The position numbers and the translations under genes were made by a program. The notes under the pieces were generated by a model. That model was not told the origin of the DNA. It did not search any database and saw only the letters and a list, made by a program, of their open reading frames with translations. Below, piece by piece: positions 1,263 to 23,764 of a stretch of 25,416 nt of DNA. Each line of letters starts with the position of its first letter. Position 1 is the first letter of the stretch. Source of the DNA: a virus (taxonomy: Duplodnaviria; Caudoviricetes); the IMG/VR virus record IMGVR_UViG_3300030207_001989, positions 1-25,416 of that record; one strand, 5' to 3'.

Positions 1263-4200
1263 CTAAGAAGTAGGTCCTACGTCACTTATAGTTAAAACCC
1301 ATATATTAGCATCAATACAAATCAGATGAGCTGTTTTGTGAGTTTCAAGTGATGCGTGACCAGCAGGAGGTGAACCACCACTTAATGAGTTTAGAGCAAT
1401 GTTACTACCAGCAGCAACTGCTTGATTTATAGTTTGACCTGTATTAGGGGTTATTTGAATTAAAGAGCCACCCGGAACAGTAGACTGATACAGACATCTT
1501 GCTACTATGAAATATTCATCGCCTACTTGAGGGTTTGATGGACAAGTTAATGTTAGGGTAGGAATAGTTGTATTATCAGCTGTAGCCAAGTAACGACTGT
1601 AACTATCAGATAGTGTTTCAGAGGCGCTAGCTGCACCGAGGTCAGTCTTCATTGTTTGCTGAACTGCTAATGTTGAACCAGTGACTGATAAAGAACCTGT
1701 AACTCCTAAGTCACCGTTGACTGTTAAAGATGGTGCACTAAAGTCACCCTTGATAAGTGGAGTGTTACTTTGTGAATTGTTTATGTAAAGTTCATTAGAA
1801 GTTGTACTTGTTGATGAAGGTCCTGCGCTAGGTCCTATTATTACATTACTTCCACCAGTAGTTACATTAATACCTGCACTCTTTCCTATGAAAACGTTAT
1901 TATCACCACCATTATTATTATAACCAGCACTGTGCCCAATAAGAACTGATGATTGTGTAACAGCATCTTGTCCTGCTCCATATCCTATCGCTACGGTATA
2001 ACTATGGTCGGCTAAAATACTACCTGCGAGACGACCTATACCTATATTACCATGACCAGTTGTTACACTGCGTAATGCATCTGAACCTAAACCAACATTG
2101 TAATCCCCTGTAGTTATACTGTATCCAGCTTGGTCTCCTACAAGAACATTTTCTTGACCGCTAGTTATACTTGTCAATGCTTCTGAACCTACACCTACGT
2201 TCTGTAGTGCTGTATGAACTCCTGAATTGTCACCTTTACCTGCTTTATAACCTATGAATGTATTGTAATTACCATGTGGATAGTATCCTGCTTGAAATCC
2301 TACTAAAGTACTTCCAGATGATTCTGAACTAAAACCAGCTAAAGAACCTACAAAAACGTTGTCTGATTGATTATTATCATAACCTGCACTGTGTCCTATC
2401 CCTACATTAGATGTTTGTGTATTGATTAAACGTAATGCATTATCTCCCATAGCTATGTTATAGTCGCCGGTTGTTATATTTTGTAATGCTTGATATCCAA
2501 CACCAACATTACTTGTACCATTTGTAATATCTAATAAAGCACTTGTACCTATACCTATGTTTTTATCTGCTTTACCACTAGCACCCATCAAAGCTTGCCA
2601 GCCAATAGCTACGTTGTGTGTACCATCTTCATTCTCTTGTGCTGCATTAGGACCAATGGCTATTATACCTTGTCCTGTAGTAATACCTTTACCAGCATTT
2701 CTACCTATTGCTACAATTTGAGTTGCAGATGAACCAGATAGGTATGCCTCAGAACCAATAGCTACGTTGTCGTTTGAAGTATTTTTCAATCCTGCAGAGT
2801 TACCTATAAATGTTGTATTGTTATGTGTTGAGCCTGAGAATCCTGCTTGAACACCCAAATGAGTATTACCAGCACCTGTAGTCATTGAGTATGATGTCTG
2901 ATAACCAATTGACGTGTTTGAGTAACCGCTAGTAATGCTTATTGCAGATTGGTATCCCATTGCTACATTTAGTTGAGCTGAAGAACCAGCACTAGCACCA
3001 GATAAAGCTTGATACCCTACAGCTACATTATAATTACCAGAAGGTCTAAAACCAGCTTTGTTACCTACATATACACTACCTGTTGCATTAGCATATGCAC
3101 CTGCTCCATTACCTAAAGCTACAGTTTCTTCAACATTAGTACCACTAACCACCGCAGATTGACCAATAGCTATTGTCTTTTTAGCTCCAGTAGCATTATA
3201 CATAGGTTGATGACCTATAGCCATCACAGAACCATAAGAATGTCCACCCGTTACAGCATAACCAGCAGCATGTCCTACGAAAACCCCAAAAGCACCATAA
3301 ACTCCAGAGGTAGTACCAGCATAATTGTATCCAGCATTTTGACCAATCATTACATTTTCAGCTCCTTTAGTAATATTGTAACCAGCTCGTCCACCAATCA
3401 CAACATTACTTGAACCAGTTGATATTTTTTCTCCAGCTTCTCTACCTATTACTACAAGATTACTAGCACTAGTACCACTATAAGCAGCTTTTCTACCTAT
3501 TACTACATTCTGCACACCTGTTGTATTAGTAAAAGCTGCTGAGCTTCCTATTGCTACTGAGTCTCCAGTACCTGCTGTGGGGTTTGTATTATACGCTGCA
3601 TATCTACCAATAGCAACCATATCGTCACCTTCTTGGTTTTCTTGTAAGGCTGAATGACCTACAGCTACATTGTCTTGTCCAGTTGTGCTACCTGTTGCAG
3701 CATAAGCTCCTATAGCTGTGTTACGAAGACCTGAAGTATTATCATACATTGATAAATAACCTATTGCTACGTTCTCCTCACCTGAAGACACACTCAACAA
3801 TGCTTGTCTTCCTATAGCTACGTTGTTTTGCGCGGTTGTAACCGAACTGTTCCCTTTCATAGCCTCTTCACCAATAGCAATATTGTAGTTACCACGTGGA
3901 CGATACAGTGTCTGTTTTCCAATCGCTACAATACTTCCTCCACCACCATTGTACGCTGCTTCATGTCCCATGACAACAACGCTGTCTGATGTATTTAAAC
4001 CATTTGCTAGGGCGTTGTTTCCTACAACTACATTGTTAGAAGTGGTGAGTCCATACCCAGACTGATAACCTAAGTATACGTTATAACCTCCAGTTTCGTT
4101 TGAGTGTCCTGCTGAGAACCCTACAAAAGTATTCTGTATACCAGAACTATTAGAAAATCCGGCATTCTTACCGAGTGCTACAATAGAACTTGCAGTATTA

Positions 4201-7200
4201 TTAGTTCCAGCTTTATAACCCACTAATGTAGATGCTGTTGCTGTAGATTGTGTATAACCAGCTTGATAACCTATATGTACATTATCTCCACCAGTAGTTA
4301 TACCATATCCTGCCGCATACCCTACAATTGTATTACTATCTCCACCTGCATTACTATACATCGTTGATGAACCAATAGCTACGTTGTAATCACTATCATA
4401 TGATGAATTAGCTCCTTTCATAGCTTCGTAACCCATGGCTACGTTATGACTACCTGACTCTGTTCGATGCATTGCATACATACCTACAGCTGTATTACGT
4501 GTATCACCTTCTACAAATTCCAGCATCGCAGAGTAACCAATAGCAACATTTCTACTTGCAGTGGTACCAGCTTCTAATGCGTATGAACCGAATACTGTAT
4601 TATAATTACCAGTGTTTATATTCTGCCCCGCTAAATATCCTCCAAGTGTATTCTCTATACCGTCAGACAAATCTTTACCTGCTTGATAACCGATAGCGGT
4701 GTTTTTGTCTCCGTCATTGATATTCATCAAAGCTTCTCTACCAATTCCTACGTTTAACTCTGCACTACCTGCAGCTGTACCAAATCCAGCATTGTATCCT
4801 ACCCAAGTATTGTAATTTCCAGTCGGATGATATCCAGATTGATAACCTATAGCTACTCCTCCAGCTCCACCAGACACTTTAGTCATAGCTGACATTCCTA
4901 CAGCTACATTGTAATCATTAGAACCAGTTCGTAACGCATTACTTCCTATACCTACGTTATTATCTCCTGAATGATAAATAGCAGCATTATAACCAACATA
5001 AGTATTGTGACTATGTGTACCAACACTTATTCCTGCTTCCTTACCAATAACTGTGTTTTGTCCTCCTGTGGTTACACCACTTCCAGCTTTACTTCCTACA
5101 GCTACGTTATTAACTCCAGTATTGAGTGTGTACAATGACCTATAACCTATAGCAGTATTATCATCAGCCGTAGTTATATCATCTAATGCACCTATACCCA
5201 AAGCTACATTATTACCTGCATCATTTGTTGTAGAAGAAGGGTTAGTCCCTATATAAATAGAATCGACCTCAGTTAATGCATCAACAAAGTTACCTATAGT
5301 ATCTGTGCCTGTGCCTATTGCTAATTTACCAGAAGATATAGAACCACCAAATGTACCTCCTCCTCCTCCGGCGGCAGAACCATTGTTTGTTAATGCAATG
5401 TCGTTACCGTCATCATCTGTAAAATATAAATTAGTAGGGTCGTCATTTTTAACCCATAAAACTCCCCAAGTATCTACGTGGGTAGGAGCCGAACTCTTTT
5501 CTTGTATCTGTATTGTGTCTACTACACTAATACCTGTAGTAGTTGGTAATGTACTACCACCGAACGCTACCTTACCTGTGAATCTTCCTGTTCCAGCAAC
5601 GTGTAACGTTTCGCCGGGAGTAGTTGATAATCCTATACCGAGGGGATTAACAAAGTAAGAATTCCCGCCTGCTTGTATGTAAGTATCTATATTACCAGCA
5701 CTGTCTTTTTGTCTAAAATAGGAGTTTGCTAATGTTGTCTCGTTGGCACCTCCACCACCTGCACCCTGTATAGTAATTACTTGGTCGTGTGTTGTATCTC
5801 CCCAGTAAGTATATGCAGTTGTACCGGCACCTCCATTCCACGGAATAAATCTAAGATAAGAACTACCTGCGTTTCCATCAAAATCCCAGTAAGCGTTGTT
5901 ATTGTTTATTTTACCAAATGTAGTTCCAGCAGATTTAAAAACAAGATTATTACCAGCATAATCTAAAACAATATCATTAGGGGAGTCTATTGTAAAATCG
6001 TCACTTGAATGAGGAGCTAATACTACGCCATCGCCAAGTGTAACTAAGTTATCTGTTATAGATAGTTGAACAGCGTTAGCTGCTCTAATAGCTAGAGTGT
6101 CAGATGAATGTGTATAATCTAATCCTCCTGCTGCATCTGCACCAGAGTCTCCCATATTAAATTGAGCATAACCATCAGTAGCAGACCGCAGTTGTATTCT
6201 AGAATATGCACCACTATCAGAAGATTGTACTCTTACTTCTTGTGTAGCAGTGCCATTAATATGTAAAGGATAAGATGGTGTGGTTCCTATACCTAATCGA
6301 CCGTTAGCTGTATCTAAAGTCATCTTGGTAGAAGTTGCGTTTTTGAATTTTATATTCTGAGAGTTATCAAATTCCATACTAGCAACAGTAGCATCTCTCA
6401 TCATAAATCTAGGATTACCATCTGCTGCACTATATATTTGATATTCATTGTCAAAGAACATATTCAATGAGTGGTGTGAGTTAAGAACCAAATTGTTGTC
6501 ACCAACAGTGTATAAAGATAAATCCCCAGAACTAGCTCTAATGTTTGCGTTTGCATCTCCAGTAGCTCCAATACTATCAGGGAATACTTCAAGGAAACTA
6601 CCTGCGTCAAAACTACCATCGCTAGCTACTGCCCTAAATCTAACAGAGCGACTAGCACTGTGTACCCAGAAATCAGTATAAGAATCGTTTGGATAAAGGG
6701 CTAAACCTGCACTACCAGATATCATACTATATTGGTTATCACCTGAAACAACAAAGTATGGGTCTATAACTATACTTTTACTACTAACCTCTGCCCTAAT
6801 ATTACCAGCTACGTCTAGTTTTTCAGCAGGTGAAGTTTCACCTATACCTACATTACCACCAGAAAGAATACGCATTCTTTCCGTGTCATTTGTACCAATA
6901 ATTATCGGTGCACTATGATTCGTACCAAAAAGAATACCATTACCGGCAGTTGATAGAAGTTCATTATATCCAGCTACTGTTACGCCATATCGAGTAACCG
7001 TTCTAGTATCTGAATGACTCAGAAGCCAACCCACCGCCGTTTGTGATTTAAAATTTAGACCACTATACGAACTTGTTCCGGCGGTAGCGTTTTGTGTTGT
7101 GATAACTAAGGGAGATGTCGAGTCTTTATGTATATCTAATATAGTATCAGGTGAAGTTGTGCCTATACCTACATCACCAGCACCTGTGATTCTCATTCTT

Positions 7201-8285
7201 TCGGTATTATCAGTTGAAAAATTGATATAACCTGCTGCACTCGCGCCTTTTAATTCAATAGTTTTAGTAGCTTTTAATAACATTAAATCAGAAGAATGTG
7301 TATATTGTATATATCCCGGTGAAGAAGCATCTCCATCTCCAAAATTAATTAAACTGTATCCTGTATTAGGGGAAGTAAATTGTAATTGTGCATACGATGA
7401 TGCATCTGATGTTTGAATTTTCACCCCACTAGTTCCATCACTTTTAACGTGTAATGTTTTTTCAGGTGCATTTGTACCTATACCTACACTACCATCTTGT
7501 TTGATTCCTAAAATAGGAGTACTACTTGGGTCTTCACTACCACTCGTCATATAGAACACGTTACCAGATGCACTCATCGAGAAATCTCTACCACTACCAA
7601 AACCTAATACATTAGTACCTTTGAGTTGGAAATACTTTTGAGAAGCAGTTTCAAAAATGATATTATCACCATTAAAGTAAAAGTTACCGTTATCGCGTAA
7701 TGAGACAATAGATTTATTAGTGGAGTTAGCTGTTATATTTAGATAGTTACCGTCAGCTGCAAAATTAAAGTAATTAGAGCCATCGTATGCTAATACTAGT
7801 TGGCGTGTTGTATCGGTTATGGTTGCTCTAGCACTATTTAAAGGTGTATTTGTACCTATACCTACACCAGCAGCTTTGATATTCATAGTGTTTGTATTAC
7901 CAGCGTAAAATCTAATATTGTCAGTCTCGAAACCTAAATAAGTATCTGTATCTCCGTTGTGTACAAGATTGCTACCAAGAAGTAAATTACTAGTCATGGT
8001 CACATTTGTGCCATTATATGTAAAACCTGAGTTACCAGCAAAGGCACCACCATTGTTATATTGTACTTGTGTATCAGAACCACCGGGAGTAGTTGTGCCT
8101 GCTAAAGCACTAAGATTAGCTGTCCATGTAGTGGCTTGTGTAGACCCTGTTAATACATTGTCTCCCCCTAATGTAGCCCCTGTAGTATAATAGTTATTGG
8201 AGGTTCCTCCTCCTCCACTCTCGTTAGTGGCTCTATTGTTAACATTCATTGCTAAACTTTTTAGTAACTTATTATACGATGACAT
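1263..8285 (-). CDS. Giant fibre/spike adhesin, 2340 aa
   Basis: The N-terminal ~950 aa have repeated '(E)RMRIxxxGxVGIGT' fibre motifs. Residues ~1020-2170 are tandem ~14-aa 'NVAIGxxA/NTxVGYxAG' repeats of the YadA-head/Hep-Hag beta-roll type, followed by a short C-terminal beta domain. Confidence 0.8.
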   Translation of the reverse strand: MSSYNKLLKSLAMNVNNRATNESGGGGTSNNYYTTGATLGGDNVLTGSTQATTWTANLSALAGTTTPGGSDTQVQYNNGGAFAGNSGFTYNGTNVTMTSNLLLGSNLVHNGDTDTYLGFETDNIRFYAGNTNTMNIKAAGVGIGTNTPLNSARATITDTTRQLVLAYDGSNYFNFAADGNYLNITANSTNKSIVSLRDNGNFYFNGDNIIFETASQKYFQLKGTNVLGFGSGRDFSMSASGNVFYMTSGSEDPSSTPILGIKQDGSVGIGTNAPEKTLHVKSDGTSGVKIQTSDASSYAQLQFTSPNTGYSLINFGDGDASSPGYIQYTHSSDLMLLKATKTIELKGASAAGYINFSTDNTERMRITGAGDVGIGTTSPDTILDIHKDSTSPLVITTQNATAGTSSYSGLNFKSQTAVGWLLSHSDTRTVTRYGVTVAGYNELLSTAGNGILFGTNHSAPIIIGTNDTERMRILSGGNVGIGETSPAEKLDVAGNIRAEVSSKSIVIDPYFVVSGDNQYSMISGSAGLALYPNDSYTDFWVHSASRSVRFRAVASDGSFDAGSFLEVFPDSIGATGDANANIRASSGDLSLYTVGDNNLVLNSHHSLNMFFDNEYQIYSAADGNPRFMMRDATVASMEFDNSQNIKFKNATSTKMTLDTANGRLGIGTTPSYPLHINGTATQEVRVQSSDSGAYSRIQLRSATDGYAQFNMGDSGADAAGGLDYTHSSDTLAIRAANAVQLSITDNLVTLGDGVVLAPHSSDDFTIDSPNDIVLDYAGNNLVFKSAGTTFGKINNNNAYWDFDGNAGSSYLRFIPWNGGAGTTAYTYWGDTTHDQVITIQGAGGGGANETTLANSYFRQKDSAGNIDTYIQAGGNSYFVNPLGIGLSTTPGETLHVAGTGRFTGKVAFGGSTLPTTTGISVVDTIQIQEKSSAPTHVDTWGVLWVKNDDPTNLYFTDDDGNDIALTNNGSAAGGGGGTFGGSISSGKLAIGTGTDTIGNFVDALTEVDSIYIGTNPSSTTNDAGNNVALGIGALDDITTADDNTAIGYRSLYTLNTGVNNVAVGSKAGSGVTTGGQNTVIGKEAGISVGTHSHNTYVGYNAAIYHSGDNNVGIGSNALRTGSNDYNVAVGMSAMTKVSGGAGGVAIGYQSGYHPTGNYNTWVGYNAGFGTAAGSAELNVGIGREALMNINDGDKNTAIGYQAGKDLSDGIENTLGGYLAGQNINTGNYNTVFGSYALEAGTTASRNVAIGYSAMLEFVEGDTRNTAVGMYAMHRTESGSHNVAMGYEAMKGANSSYDSDYNVAIGSSTMYSNAGGDSNTIVGYAAGYGITTGGDNVHIGYQAGYTQSTATASTLVGYKAGTNNTASSIVALGKNAGFSNSSGIQNTFVGFSAGHSNETGGYNVYLGYQSGYGLTTSNNVVVGNNALANGLNTSDSVVVMGHEAAYNGGGGSIVAIGKQTLYRPRGNYNIAIGEEAMKGNSSVTTAQNNVAIGRQALLSVSSGEENVAIGYLSMYDNTSGLRNTAIGAYAATGSTTGQDNVAVGHSALQENQEGDDMVAIGRYAAYNTNPTAGTGDSVAIGSSAAFTNTTGVQNVVIGRKAAYSGTSASNLVVIGREAGEKISTGSSNVVIGGRAGYNITKGAENVMIGQNAGYNYAGTTSGVYGAFGVFVGHAAGYAVTGGHSYGSVMAIGHQPMYNATGAKKTIAIGQSAVVSGTNVEETVALGNGAGAYANATGSVYVGNKAGFRPSGNYNVAVGYQALSGASAGSSAQLNVAMGYQSAISITSGYSNTSIGYQTSYSMTTGAGNTHLGVQAGFSGSTHNNTTFIGNSAGLKNTSNDNVAIGSEAYLSGSSATQIVAIGRNAGKGITTGQGIIAIGPNAAQENEDGTHNVAIGWQALMGASGKADKNIGIGTSALLDITNGTSNVGVGYQALQNITTGDYNIAMGDNALRLINTQTSNVGIGHSAGYDNNQSDNVFVGSLAGFSSESSGSTLVGFQAGYYPHGNYNTFIGYKAGKGDNSGVHTALQNVGVGSEALTSITSGQENVLVGDQAGYSITTGDYNVGLGSDALRSVTTGHGNIGIGRLAGSILADHSYTVAIGYGAGQDAVTQSSVLIGHSAGYNNNGGDNNVFIGKSAGINVTTGGSNVIIGPSAGPSSTSTTSNELYINNSQSNTPLIKGDFSAPSLTVNGDLGVTGSLSVTGSTLAVQQTMKTDLGAASASETLSDSYSRYLATADNTTIPTLTLTCPSNPQVGDEYFIVARCLYQSTVPGGSLIQITPNTGQTINQAVAAGSNIALNSLSGGSPPAGHASLETHKTAHLICIDANIWVLTISDVGPTS

Positions 8286-20539: not shown

Positions 20540-20819
20540 CCTCGAAAGGGTGGGAAGATGAAAATAGCAAAATAGTATTGCACCCACCCCGACGATTATG
20601 TTCCGTGAGTCCCCGAACACTGTAAGATGTGGCCCAAGGAGTAGGCGCACCCAACGGAAAGGGCAAGTGTATGAGTCAGTCTAATAAACTGTCCAGCATC
20701 GGGGACAATAGGAGACGCCTGACAAGTGAAGGCGAAGGGCCGTGCACTTAATGACCGCCCGAACGTTAAACGTAGCGACGTATCTCCAGCCCGGCCGTGC
20801 TGAGGTCAGCCGGGCGCCC
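20540..20819 (+). ncRNA. Candidate structured, multiply pseudoknotted RNA A (~280 nt)
   Basis: GC-enriched and without a credible ORF. Complementary segments: GGGTGGG/CCCACCC, GTCCCCGA/TCGGGGAC, TTCCGT/ACGGAA, GGCCC/GGGCC, AAGTGTAT/GTGCACTT, GGAGA/TCTCC, CGCCT/AGGCG and GCCCGGC/GCCGGGC. Confidence 0.6.
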
Positions 20820-20870
20820 TTTTCCACACGGGTGGAAAAACCTTTATATAGGCAGACCCGTTGGTATATT
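20820..20870 (+). repeat. Palindromic repeat copy 2 fused to a promoter
   Basis: TTTTCCACACGGGTGGAAAAA-CC-TTTATATA-GGCAGACCCGTTGGTATATT-ATG. Confidence 0.85.
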
Positions 20871-21513: not shown

Positions 21514-21565
21514 TTTTCCACGCGGGTGAAAAAATCTTTATATAGACCCTCACTATTGGTATAAT
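21514..21565 (+). repeat. Palindromic repeat copy 3 fused to a promoter
   Basis: TTTTCCACGCGGGTGAAAAAA-TC-TTTATATA-GACCCTCACTATTGGTATAAT-ATG, preceded by the hairpin GGGGGG-TAGGGCCT-CCCCCC (21492-21511). Confidence 0.85.
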
Positions 21566-21865
21566 ATGACAGAATACAAGGAGTCGAGTGAATATTCACC
21601 AAGCACGAAATACGAAGAATACAAAACAGGCCGAGGTAAAAACCCATGTGGTAAAACTGTAAAGGTTGATAACCCATATGAGATTTACAAGGGCAACGGT
21701 TTTGAATGGAGAGTATTAAAGAAATACCAAATGCCACATATGGAAAAAGCCAATATGTATGCTAGATGGTATTGTGCCGTGAGAAGCCCAATGACTTATG
21801 GTAGTTGGGAATACGGAGACGTCTACGTCCACGACGTCAAGAAATACGGAGAAAGGGTTAAATAG
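21566..21865 (+). CDS. 99-aa Tyr/Trp-rich hypothetical protein, leaderless
   Basis: ATG 22 nt after the TATA box; motifs 'WRVLKKYQ', 'ARWYCAVRSP' and 'WEYGDVY'. Confidence 0.8.
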   Translation: MTEYKESSEYSPSTKYEEYKTGRGKNPCGKTVKVDNPYEIYKGNGFEWRVLKKYQMPHMEKANMYARWYCAVRSPMTYGSWEYGDVYVHDVKKYGERVK

Positions 21866-21885
21866 ACCCTCTCTATTGGTATTAC
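21852..21885 (+). promoter_or_regulatory. Repeated promoter with no downstream ORF (would drive RNA B)
   Basis: AAAGGGTTAAATAGACCCTCTCTATTGGTATTAC, followed by a hairpin instead of an ATG. Confidence 0.7.
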
Positions 21886-22229
21886 AGAGAGAGTTTCAGG
21901 GGCCGAATCCCGACTCTCTCACTTATGGTTATAGACGTATAACATCGTATACGATTAGTGACCTGAGTATTTGAGACCAGAATAGACCATACGCCAGTAG
22001 ACGACAAGCAATAACAAACTCAAGCTGAACAAGTGCTGACCAATCCCTTACCGGTCGATGCGCATCTTAGTTGATTAACGACGTGTAGCTAACATTATGT
22101 ATCACCTTTTGCCTCACTTAGTCCCTGTTATAGACTTCGTCGTCGAAGCTATGAAGTAATTCTCTGCATCTCTTTACGCCCACCTCTCGTGAAGGATATC
22201 CTTTTGATTGGTGGCAGGTCACACCCGGA
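21886..22229 (+). ncRNA. Candidate structured RNA B (~340 nt) with its own promoter
   Basis: 5' hairpin GAGAGAGT/ACTCTCTC, hairpins GTTATA/TATAAC and ATCG/CGAT, long-range GTGACCTG(21958-65)/CAGGTCAC(22215-22), and several internal stems; no ORF. Confidence 0.65.
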
Positions 22230-22281
22230 TTTTCCACTCGTGTGAAAAAAGCTTTATATAGGGTCTCTCTATTGGTAATAC
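22230..22281 (+). repeat. Palindromic repeat copy 4 fused to a promoter
   Basis: TTTTCCACTCGTGTGAAAAAA-GC-TTTATATA-GGGTCTCTCTATTGGTAATAC-ATG. Confidence 0.85.
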
Positions 22282-22548: not shown

Positions 22549-22881
22549 ATGACTAAAGCAAAAATGGATTACCTTTGGGCTCCTAAGTCTGAAGGTGTAG
22601 TAAGCGACATACTAAACCACATTGGTATCATAAAGGTCGGTGAGTCCGACCGATACCCTGCTGGTGTAAAGTATGACACTCTCATCGCAATCTCGGATGT
22701 CATTCATGGCAACGACGATTTCGGTTCGATGGTTGCATCTCGCACTCACGAACTACAAAGCAAACGAGAAACAACACCAAAAGCCCCTTCTGTTGATTCA
22801 GTGGTTGGAGCTTTGGTTACAGGCAGAATGTCTGAAGAAGATTTGAAGAAAGCTATGAAAAAAGCTGGTCTTCTCAAGTAA
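22549..22881 (+). CDS. 110-aa hypothetical protein, leaderless
   Basis: The ORF starts at the expected TSS and has a short helical C-terminus. Confidence 0.75.
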   Translation: MTKAKMDYLWAPKSEGVVSDILNHIGIIKVGESDRYPAGVKYDTLIAISDVIHGNDDFGSMVASRTHELQSKRETTPKAPSVDSVVGALVTGRMSEEDLKKAMKKAGLLK

Positions 22882-22894
22882 GCCAATATATCAA

Positions 22895-23190
22895 GCACCT
22901 GAGCAAGTCAGAAAACTGCTCGCCTTATACTTAAGGAAGTAGCTCTTCCTTATCGGGTATGGCTGAAGAAGTCCGCCACGGACTAAGGCACAGGGCACGC
23001 AAACCAAGAACCGACTGGTGGAGGAATGCGTGACTGGTATGGGTTAATACTGTAGTGGCATAAACCCATTGGAGGTATACAGCAAGGCCTCCTACCCACC
23101 TTACATTGATGCCCCTAGACCATCGTTAACGACGCGAACGAATCGAGATGGAAATGCTTTACCGGCGCCGGTATATAAGTCAGGGGCTCA
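22895..23190 (+). ncRNA. Candidate structured RNA C (~300 nt)
   Basis: Consecutive stems GAGCA/TGCTC, TAAGGAAG/CTTCCTTA, AGTCCG/CGGACT, CACGCA/TGCGTG, ATGGGTT/AACCCAT and GGAGG/CCTCC, then GCCCCT/AGGGGC enclosing CCATC/GATGG and ACCGG/CCGGT; no ORF. Confidence 0.65.
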
Positions 23191-23196
23191 TCTTTA

Positions 23197-23215
23197 TTTT
23201 TCCACGCGTGTGAAA
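23197..23215. repeat. Palindromic repeat copy 5 (no TATA box follows)
   Basis: TTTTTCCACGCGTGTGAAA. Confidence 0.8.
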
Positions 23216-23283
23216 CTTTTTCGCGTCCTCTCAGCTTAGCTCGACTAAGTATTTTTTTTTATCTCAGTAGGGCCTAGGGCCCC

Positions 23284-23407
23284 GTGAGAAAACAACACCT
23301 CAGCACAGTAGGGCAGGGTGAGAAAACAAGTCTCAGCTCAACCTAACCGCTAGGTGAGTTTTTTAGCCCTACTACGCAACGCTCAGGTGAGAAAACAGGG
23401 TGCTCAG
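23284..23407 (+). repeat. Three iteron-like direct repeats GTGAGAAAACA-N3-5-CTCAG
   Basis: Copies start at 23284, 23318 and 23387, followed by an AT-rich tract at about 23520-23700. Confidence 0.75.
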
Positions 23408-23764
23408 TGGGGCTTAACTGAGGTTGGTTCGAAAGCTTTAAAGCTCATCCTCCAAACCGGAACCAGTTCGGGTTCAGTAGAGCGAACTGTGTTCGTGAAA
23501 AGAAAGTAGAGTAAGTAGTTCTCAGTCTATATTATATTATGCTCTATAAAGAATGCTCTACTACGCAAAGCTATACTGAGTAAATTAAGCTTTACTTAGT
23601 TAAGCTCTACTATGCTCTTTACTTACAGCAATAATTAGCATAATAGAGCTATATCTTAATATAGTTAATATAGGGAATACGAACTATATATAGTTTTGCA
23701 TGAAAAAGCACCCCGTTTTTTGTCTCAGTATAGAAATCGTGCGGGGCTCTCAGTCCAACAAGGG

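Follow-up and report, generated by a model that had tools for sequence, protein, structure and literature searches.

A conserved, uncatalogued non-coding RNA with candidate self-pairing sites in marine viruses of probable archaeal hosts

The locus and the fold of its RNA

The linear virus record IMGVR_UViG_3300030207_001989 (Caudoviricetes; 25.4 kb, all 25,416 nucleotides of which were analysed and are called the window here) carries terminase, portal, capsid and tail genes on its minus strand and short genes on its plus strand. Near the end of the record lies a stretch that had been predicted, from its letters alone, to encode a structured non-coding RNA of about 340 nucleotides (nt) with a dedicated promoter and a defined end. 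We find there a real and conserved RNA family that has not been catalogued and whose function we infer. The locus is made up of the following features:

21849..21885, plus strand: archaeal-type promoter copy with a purine run, a TATA box (21857-21865) and a TATTGG element; predicted transcription start at about 21886
21887..21921, plus strand: exchangeable leader hairpin module whose 22-nt apex is near-invariant and whose closing stem varies; a short linker of the CACTTA type comes next
21928..21955, plus strand: P0, one or more hairpins directly 5' of the closing helix, including a perfect 12-nt palindrome (21944-21955); predicted self-pairing site 1
21958..22226, plus strand: conserved core RNA, about 265 nt, closed by helix P1 (21958-65 with 22215-22) and ending in unpaired ACC
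21967..22177, plus strand: P2, a long and irregular rod made up of six helical segments, with 21967-22016 pairing to 22126-22177; it begins 0-1 nt after P1 and carries the apical domain
22044..22126, plus strand: apical domain with three UC(A/C)CU motifs (22044-48, 22114-18 and 22122-26), predicted protein-binding sites
22101-04, plus strand: AUCA motif of the apical domain, a further predicted protein-binding site
22054..22082, plus strand: P4 junction (GTCG/CGAC), 100% paired, holding the self-complementary 8-mer 22058-22065; predicted self-pairing site 2, in the close branch of the family only
22180..22214, plus strand: 3' arm stacked on P1, made of a 5-bp stem, a 2x1 internal loop that is conserved and a tetraloop cap that varies

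Relatives were fetched by two neighbouring proteins (26 and 27 loci) and by DNA patterns (23 viral, 41 metagenome and 12 further stretches); stretches from the pattern scans without a match to the model were dropped, 3 of 12 in one set being unrelated. Alignment A2 contains 34 distinct full-length copies of the close branch, 45-94% identical to the window (median 83%). A motif scan yielded a distant branch of 14 copies that are 48-55% identical by global alignment and match the A2-built model at E values of 2e-12 to 0.034, and 20 representatives were drawn as a sample from both branches. Similarity among relatives starts sharply at 21958 and stops at about 22226, and the conserved unit is this core together with the small hairpin directly 5' of it, about 270-340 letters overall. 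The ~340-nt unit first proposed thus contains a real conserved RNA but a narrower one, the hairpin at 21887-21921 being a separate module. The longest open reading frames (ORFs) inside 21886-22229 have 20 codons on the plus strand and 34 on the minus strand, and no conserved ORF was found in the copies of the core, in agreement with the earlier claim that the transcript has none.

The complementary words on which the original prediction was built, GAGAGAGT (21887-94) with ACTCTCTC (21913-20), GTGACCTG (21958-65) with CAGGTCAC (22215-22), ACGACG (22078-83) with CGTCGT (22138-43) and seven short inner pairs, are all present at those positions, and the closing helix does end 7 nt before the T-run at 22230. 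How well they are kept among the 34 close copies differs greatly: the closing helix and AAGG/CCTT are retained in 34, CCACC/GGTGG in 33, GATG/CATC in 28, GACC/GGTC in 22 and TTAGTTG/TAGCTAA in 14, whereas TTGAG/CTCAA and CTTCG/CGAAG survive in two copies each, indicating that many of the inner pairs are due to chance. The loop-loop pair proposed between ACGACG and CGTCGT is likewise intact in only 2 of 34.

The sequence folds more stably than its shuffles, with z scores of -2.32 for a 348-nt region (0 of 100 shuffles as good; -1.75 for the minus strand) and -4.3 for the 269-nt core (25 shuffles). A model built by hand on A2 contains 63 pairs, with 90% of alignment cells paired and 32 pairs changed on both sides, so that covariation in related viruses, proposed earlier as a check, is indeed found. 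None of 500 shuffles equals the model and slid controls are 28-48% paired, a comparison that favours the model because it was derived from the window's own fold; since the copies are also related, the counts for single helices tell more. P1, the rod P2 and the 3' arm stacked on P1 meet in a three-way junction. P1 is paired in 34 of 34 close copies and has 6-9 bp, and it begins with a G1-C pair in 20 of 20 representatives, the base after the helix being A in 17. In P2 (helices 2-7) 68-98% of cells are paired and 12 pairs have changed on both sides, register shifts between sub-branches lowering the pairing in some segments. All five pairs of the 3' arm stem covary, and its internal loop (C-G, [G/C]U opposite U, G.U, A-U) is flanked by a C-G pair and a further Watson-Crick pair in all 20 representatives. 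When 13 distant copies were folded with RNAalifold, only the 3' arm was recovered from a poor alignment; descent of the distant interior from a common ancestor is inferred from shared layout and motifs. Because G.U pairs occur and UUCG or GNRA caps close the loops, the plus strand is fixed as the RNA strand. Together, covariation, the lack of a conserved ORF and, weakly, contigs from RNA libraries support a stand-alone structured non-coding viral RNA on the plus strand, and we are nearly certain that it is functional.

The traces of expression are slight. Of 24 sequencing runs listed, 17 are on record as RNA, and eight were examined. In five of the seven RNA runs among these (X3, X4, X5, X7 and X9) contigs of the core reach depths of 35-98, compared with at most 22 elsewhere, but all come from runs chosen with this region as bait, such that level, strand and ends cannot be read from them. 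X2 (depth 6.8) and X8 (depth 3.4, spanning the promoter) have no such pile-up, and X1, which is probably DNA, has a flat depth. In X9 the contig starts one base 5' of P1 and stops at 22223; adapter follows 22224 in X5 and 22218 in X4. Contig ends lie near the base of P1. Three of the five runs with a pile-up may come from a single campaign, and contigs can also stop at these borders because strains differ there. These observations are a weak hint that a discrete RNA is expressed. One contig end, ACACC before P1, could be read as the join of a circular RNA, a reading that was rejected as ACACC is the genomic leader of some relatives. 

D10, the repeat family that includes this promoter, has six copies. 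Sister copies at 21537, 22253 and 22520 have an ATG 29 nt after the start of the TATA box, whereas this copy has AGA at 21886, bearing out the earlier observation that it lacks the start codon. That the promoter is dedicated to the RNA holds in the window but not as a trait of the family. The TATA box is kept in 12 of 12 rows of alignment A1. Among the 20 representatives, the promoter sits directly 5' of P0 in five; 11 have no TATA match within 140 nt upstream, and in two more the only match lies inside P0. In the genome G004 the order is promoter, 110-amino-acid ORF, hairpin, manA RNA (Rfam RF01745), P0, core RNA and a further element. Because the distant-branch RNA sits behind the ORF and manA without a TATA box of its own, possession of a promoter is not characteristic of the family.

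The core RNA occurs once per genome in 21 of the 27 records that carry a gene for a CobS-like protein, 19 of them with one strong match in the genome search and two with a weak local match (E = 7.8e-5 and 0.034). It was not found in G007, G010 and G013, whose contigs end before the site, nor in the partial records G022 and G026, and three further records, reached only via a 99-amino-acid protein, have neither this RNA nor manA. The suggested comparison with Rfam gave no family match at E values up to 1 for the window, at the gathering score for 14 loci, or above chance for eight loci at E values up to 5. There was no DNA match among GenBank phages, and a scan of a genome collection with the CobS-like protein gave no match. 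No cellular homologue was detected in 101 genomes from the phylum to which G006, a Nitrosopumilales assembly, belongs, in a search with strict filters, no positive control and Poseidoniales genomes outside its reach. We did not find the RNA described in the literature on non-coding or tRNA-like RNAs of Poseidoniales and archaeal viruses. Short words of the RNA are absent from four of the six text supplements of a report of 10,000 candidate viral RNAs (PMC10690425), whose alignment archives may still contain the family.

Symmetric sites and candidate self-pairing

Two sites that the original prediction overlooked, P0 and the 8-mer within the P4 junction, are self-complementary. The 8-mer is a perfect palindrome in 34 of 34 close copies, in which it is spelled in seven ways; no other 8-column window behaves like it, and two other variable loops are unconstrained. 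When its changes were counted on a tree built without these columns, they were mirror-symmetric by position (2, 3, 2, 5, 5, 2, 3, 2), and with 24 position changes over eight columns, against a mean of 2.7 per column, the site changes at the average rate while its symmetry is never lost. At its centre, two adjacent positions that are unable to pair within one strand change together in 11 of 34 copies. As an intramolecular hairpin the 8-mer is unfavourable (+1.3 to +4.7 kcal/mol), and as a duplex it is favourable (-7.0 to -14.1 kcal/mol); folding as a dimer brings a computed gain of 12-14 kcal/mol. If two identical molecules pair, one expects just this, a changing sequence under selection to stay symmetric.

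P0 behaves similarly and is found in both branches. Of 35 different 28-mers taken from just before P1, 31 contain a palindrome of at least 6 nt; shuffling gives 13.9 on average and never more than 21 in 300 runs. All 14 distant copies are palindromic at P0, where the 7-nt loop often consists of a hexamer and a single unpaired base; ordinary genomic hairpin loops of the relative G002, counted for comparison, are palindromic in 60 of 1266 cases. The contig of run X7 covers P0, which counts for P0 staying attached to the core. These data suggest that the RNA probably pairs with copies of itself via P0 and the 8-mer, and in the window's branch each molecule would have two contact sites.

Palindromes could also mark a cis-acting element, either one that serves the downstream gene as a structured leader or processing cassette, or one that works as DNA, its palindromes being protein sites or products of template switching. 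The region has many palindromes, and template switching can rewrite a palindrome in one step. The downstream ORF, however, has a promoter of its own, and the neighbours vary between branches. The G.U pairs and the UUCG and GNRA caps fix the plus strand as RNA, the symmetry in 34 of 34 copies needs selection, and because their spelling changes the palindromes are not a fixed protein site. We consider a cis-acting element the least probable of the explanations discussed here.

A repeated pyrimidine motif and candidate functions

The original prediction also missed a short motif, UC(A/C)CU, that recurs in the apical domain. It occurs 65 times in the 20 representatives, compared with 14.3 +/- 4.0 times in dinucleotide shuffles, an excess that is an upper estimate because the pattern was chosen after looking at these sequences. 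At least two copies are present in 19 of the 20, and the predicted unpaired share is 0.51-0.72 for the motif, compared with 0.42 overall. Its complement is depleted (3 occurrences, 7.2 expected). KH domains read short pyrimidine words, and the first candidate binders would be host KH-domain proteins of RNA decay or termination (Rrp4, aCPSF1, aNusA and Dim2).

Our preferred, tentative reading is that the RNA is a self-pairing molecule whose UC(A/C)CU repeats may act as a multivalent decoy that draws in a host RNA-binding protein. Transcribed from its own promoter, or excised from a transcript of the whole cluster, the RNA would fold into the three-way junction. Because the distant branch has no promoter of its own, longer transcripts would presumably be cut 3' of helix ends to set the RNA free. 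Molecules would then pair via the P0 loop in both branches and additionally via the 8-mer in the close branch, and the resulting dimer or larger assembly would display several UC(A/C)CU sites. The least certain step is that these motifs would bind a host protein. A decoy was one of the roles named in the original prediction, beside antitoxin and anti-defence RNA, and it stays a matter of interpretation that we would back only with reserve; nothing specific to an antitoxin emerged.

Several points weigh against this reading, in addition to the two RNA runs without a pile-up and the baited choice of runs mentioned above. The 34 close copies are related and look mosaic, so that the seven spellings of the 8-mer may represent only six independent changes, and in the distant branch the 8-mer is not found at that site (alignment A3, read by eye). 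Four of the 35 P0 variants hold only a 4-nt palindrome, and P0 may be cut off the main RNA, as the deep contigs of X3, X4, X5 and X9 start 1-5 nt upstream of P1. In their interior the distant copies fit the model alignment poorly. The RNA is dispensable in at least one relative, because G017 (96% complete) lacks it, its manA being joined directly to the next element. Finally, dimer, partner and target are predictions only.

A different use of the same sites would be structural: the RNA may build a cage, ring or filament by self-assembly, alone or together with manA and the cluster's other RNAs, the UC(A/C)CU motifs serving as RNA-RNA contacts. The two self-complementary sites per molecule in the close branch and the position of the RNA beside manA, with which it is co-transcribed in G004 and G019 and which itself forms cages in vitro, are consistent with this idea. 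On the other hand, the complement of the motif is depleted inside the RNA, no partner sequence in a neighbouring RNA was seen by eye to vary with the A/C position, and manA is kept in G017 without this RNA. We regard a structural role as rather unlikely.

Some words of the RNA suggest yet another target. AUCACC and CCCUCC-like words resemble the tail of 16S rRNA, and an RNA mimicking the 16S 3' end could act as a Shine-Dalgarno decoy that pairs with host sequences and favours the viral early mRNAs, which are leaderless. The switch between A and C at the middle base of the motif would break such pairing, and the genes of a relative themselves use such sites, with GAGG before 11 and GGTGA before 4 of 44 start codons; this explanation is very unlikely. 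Slightly more credible, although still improbable, is a role as antitoxin or anti-defence RNA, by which one particular defence nuclease of the host would be neutralised. The RNA lies in the early region among short leaderless genes, has been gained and lost as a module and carries repeated motifs, as might be expected of such an RNA, but it has neither a repeat-spacer nor a tandem-pseudoknot layout, and no toxin or defence gene was found beside it.

The three-way junction itself is reminiscent of transfer-messenger RNA (tmRNA). We therefore weighed a tmRNA-like or tRNA-shaped RNA that would act on the archaeal ribosome, with a viral archaeal-type initiation factor (aIF-1A) taking the place in the decoding site that SmpB has in bacteria. 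The acceptor-like stem with G1-C and a following A, the 5-bp stacked stem and the long irregular helix in the position of the anticodon arm fit this shape. A motif, NA(A/G)UC, ends at positions 85-94 in 13 of 20 representatives, and the resume signal of bacterial tmRNA lies near these positions. A gene for aIF-1A was found in 18 of 22 records searched. The defining details, by contrast, are missing. G3.U70 is absent from 20 of 20 representatives, which have G:C, U:A, C:G or A:U there; there is neither a D-loop nor a T-loop, since P2 follows P1 after 0-1 nt and an extended hairpin forms the end of the stacked arm (two of the 20 contain TTCRA, outside any loop); and CCA at the tRNA position is encoded in none of the 20, although an added CCA would be invisible in contigs. 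Frames after the NA(A/G)UC motif run for 2 to more than 40 codons without the shared end that a conserved tag would require. ARAGORN reported nothing in the window and, in 29 loci, no tmRNA and only tRNA-Glu in four. No SmpB was found in 5 of 5 complete relative genomes by a search whose control exceeded the cut-off in 10 of 14, all bacteria, and aIF-1A is also present in G017, which lacks the RNA. Thus we have little faith in a tmRNA-like RNA, and slightly less in the extended version in which, as a dimer, such an RNA brought into archaea by the virus would free or park host ribosomes for viral translation, aIF-1A replacing SmpB; archaea are not known to have a tmRNA.

Two further identities were tried and rejected. 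A tRNA, or a tRNA with a large insertion, does not fit an RNA without D arm, anticodon arm and T-loop and without a match to RF00005. A kink-turn (bound by L7Ae, as in box C/D and H/ACA RNAs) was considered for the 3' arm. Such a motif has tandem G.A/A.G pairs and a conserved A at 2b after a 3-nt bulge. In the arm, A occupies that place in only 12 of 20 representatives, the partner of the G is C, and the pair that follows shows Watson-Crick covariation in 20 of 20 and 34 of 34.

Virus setting, neighbouring elements and known RNAs

The host of these uncultured ocean viruses is probably an archaeon, because their promoters and their IF-1A are of archaeal type. In the window, TATA boxes stand 29 nt before leaderless ATG codons, and the early genes are leaderless. 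G002, a relative with a complete genome of 67.3 kb, has genes for PolB, ribonucleotide reductase and a GT4 glycosyltransferase, and next to PolB one for an aIF-1A (L134:11917-12249) that scores above the NF003084 cut-off; G001 has the CobS-like ATPase followed by a VWA protein. The archaeal promoters and the archaeal-type IF-1A, with the terminase, portal and capsid genes, fit Caudoviricetes that infect archaea. For aIF-1A, 286 related proteins were found. Its sole match in an archaeal genome is in a Nitrosopumilales assembly, at 42%. A contig binned in a Maricaulis assembly (L137) has the viral IF-1A at 82% identity and is probably a mis-binned virus fragment. The viruses also carry a short gene of about 200 codons for a squalene/phytoene-synthase-like protein (L032:13983-14582; L134:6448-7050), and the window encodes, at 1263-8285, a tail or virion protein of 2340 residues with 17-residue repeats.

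The RNA has the following neighbours in the window:

20590..20822, plus strand: RNA A, a conserved non-coding element with homologues in 14 loci including the window (nhmmer E < 1e-8) and no Rfam match
22230..22250, strand not assigned: T-run plus palindromic repeat that precedes the next promoter; one of five window copies (D18), a candidate terminator and/or operator
22549..22881, plus strand: conserved 110-amino-acid ORF upstream of manA, with 31 distinct homologues in the fetched loci
22932..23102, plus strand: manA RNA (RF01745), 62.6 bits against a gathering score of 55.2

The five T-run palindromes stand directly 5' of promoters (19936, 20820, 21514, 22230 and 23198) and may be terminators, operators or both. 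Nine of the 12 rows of alignment A1 have an additional hairpin element downstream of the core, placed before this repeat or before the row ends. Conserved elements directly 3' of the RNA also occur at L050:5400-5480, L032:5500-5575 and L152:1810-1855, as a long hairpin in the close branch (lacking in the window) and as a different element in the distant branch. RNA A contains a stretch similar to the 5' part of the manA consensus and has some cover by RNA contigs. manA was matched in 22 of 30 records searched; it had no contig cover in the seven RNA runs, which were picked with the core region as bait. In the distant branch, as arranged in G004, the 110-amino-acid ORF forms one unit with manA and the core RNA. 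For its product neither a family nor a clear fold was matched; the model (pLDDT 81) had no counterpart in Foldseek, the best Z being 4.1. A single tRNA-Glu(TTC) with an encoded CCA lies in the same cluster in 4 of 29 loci (L047:891-966, L012, L048 and L053). At 23200-23760 the window is non-coding, with repeated CTCAG/TGAG words and an AT-rich part that are kept in many relatives, possibly a replication origin or packaging region.

The leader hairpin module (35 nt) is found in nine distinct contexts, or with nine closing stems, among loci L001-L054. It is placed before the core RNA, before manA, before RNA A or after the core RNA, and is absent where a promoter directly adjoins P0; examples are window 21887-21921 and copies in L004, L005, L007, L010, L034, L048, L049 and L051. 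Other leader hairpins carry T-loop-like loops. A linker of the type C(A/G)C(C/T)TTA(C/T) follows the helix ends of several RNA modules (window 21920, 22921 and 23097), with nine matches in 2.6 kb compared with eight in 12.9 kb, overlapping matches included, and may be a shared processing signal.

The RNA represents an uncatalogued family in a marine archaeal virus lineage that combines a signature of intermolecular pairing, a candidate protein-binding motif, natural variants by swap and loss, and manA in the same cluster. If it does titrate a host RNA-binding protein or touch the ribosome, it would be an RNA-based route of host take-over in archaeal viruses, for which we found no description in the literature. 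For the self-assembling ornate RNAs that it most resembles (ROOL, GOLLD, OLE, ARRPOF and manA) structures are available, and we know of almost no functions.

By gene content, these viruses are similar to magrovirus group E, viruses of Poseidoniales, as far as that group is described in the available part of PMC11706807, and they have PolB, CobS/VWA and GT4 in common with the Krittikaviridae according to the same part of that source. One of the closest known RNAs is manA, which was described from cyanophages and Photobacterium as a motif of 5' untranslated regions; in these viruses it is a regular gene of the group, inside an RNA cluster and not 5' of a metabolic gene. Both are RNAs of marine viruses from the same cluster, with a 5' hairpin, a closing helix, a last arm stacked on it and then ACC(U/C). 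The present RNA does not match the manA model, however, and measures about 265 rather than 190 nt; manA has a multi-branch core with loop pairs such as L5-L7', unlike the three-way junction with one long rod and self-complementary sites. In the accessible sections of PMC2864571 manA is a likely cis-regulatory motif of marine samples and cyanophages. According to the portion of a preprint at our disposal (10.64898/2026.07.01.735769), it forms RNA-only pentamers, decamers and a 60-mer via kissing loops in vitro, and archaea do not occur in that portion.

CsrB/RsmZ-type RNAs are protein sponges. They share with this RNA several copies of a short unpaired motif on one molecule, a feature seen here in the 65 occurrences (14.3 in shuffles), mostly unpaired and at least twofold in 19 of 20 representatives; the motif is pyrimidine-rich here, has 2-6 copies in most members and does not sit in regular stem-loops. 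With tmRNA the RNA shares only topology, namely the acceptor-like stem, the stacked 3' arm and a long irregular helix 2 that closes a large inner domain.

In the kissing loops that initiate retroviral dimers, the palindrome is likewise spelled differently between strains. P0 has in common with these loops, and with HYER1 and HYER5, a 6-nt palindrome in a 7-nt loop of varying spelling, but it belongs to a stand-alone RNA of a DNA virus of archaea and not to a genome or ribozyme. Palindrome-dependent dimers are described for HYER1 and HYER5 in the available text of PMC12990946. ARRPOF (a dimer of 255 nt), OLE, ROOL and GOLLD, which are large structured non-coding RNAs from microbes and their mobile elements, assemble according to the same text into homo-oligomers via kissing loops or palindromic pairing. 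The RNA studied here differs from them in having no Rfam match, a host that is archaeal by promoter type and aIF-1A, and a tRNA nearby in only 4 of 29 loci. Conserved sites for intermolecular pairing, the hallmark of these RNAs, are present here as a signature in the 8-mer and P0 rather than as an observed contact. Thus, as judged by that signature, the viral RNA may work like the self-assembling ornate RNAs covered by the available text of PMC12990946.

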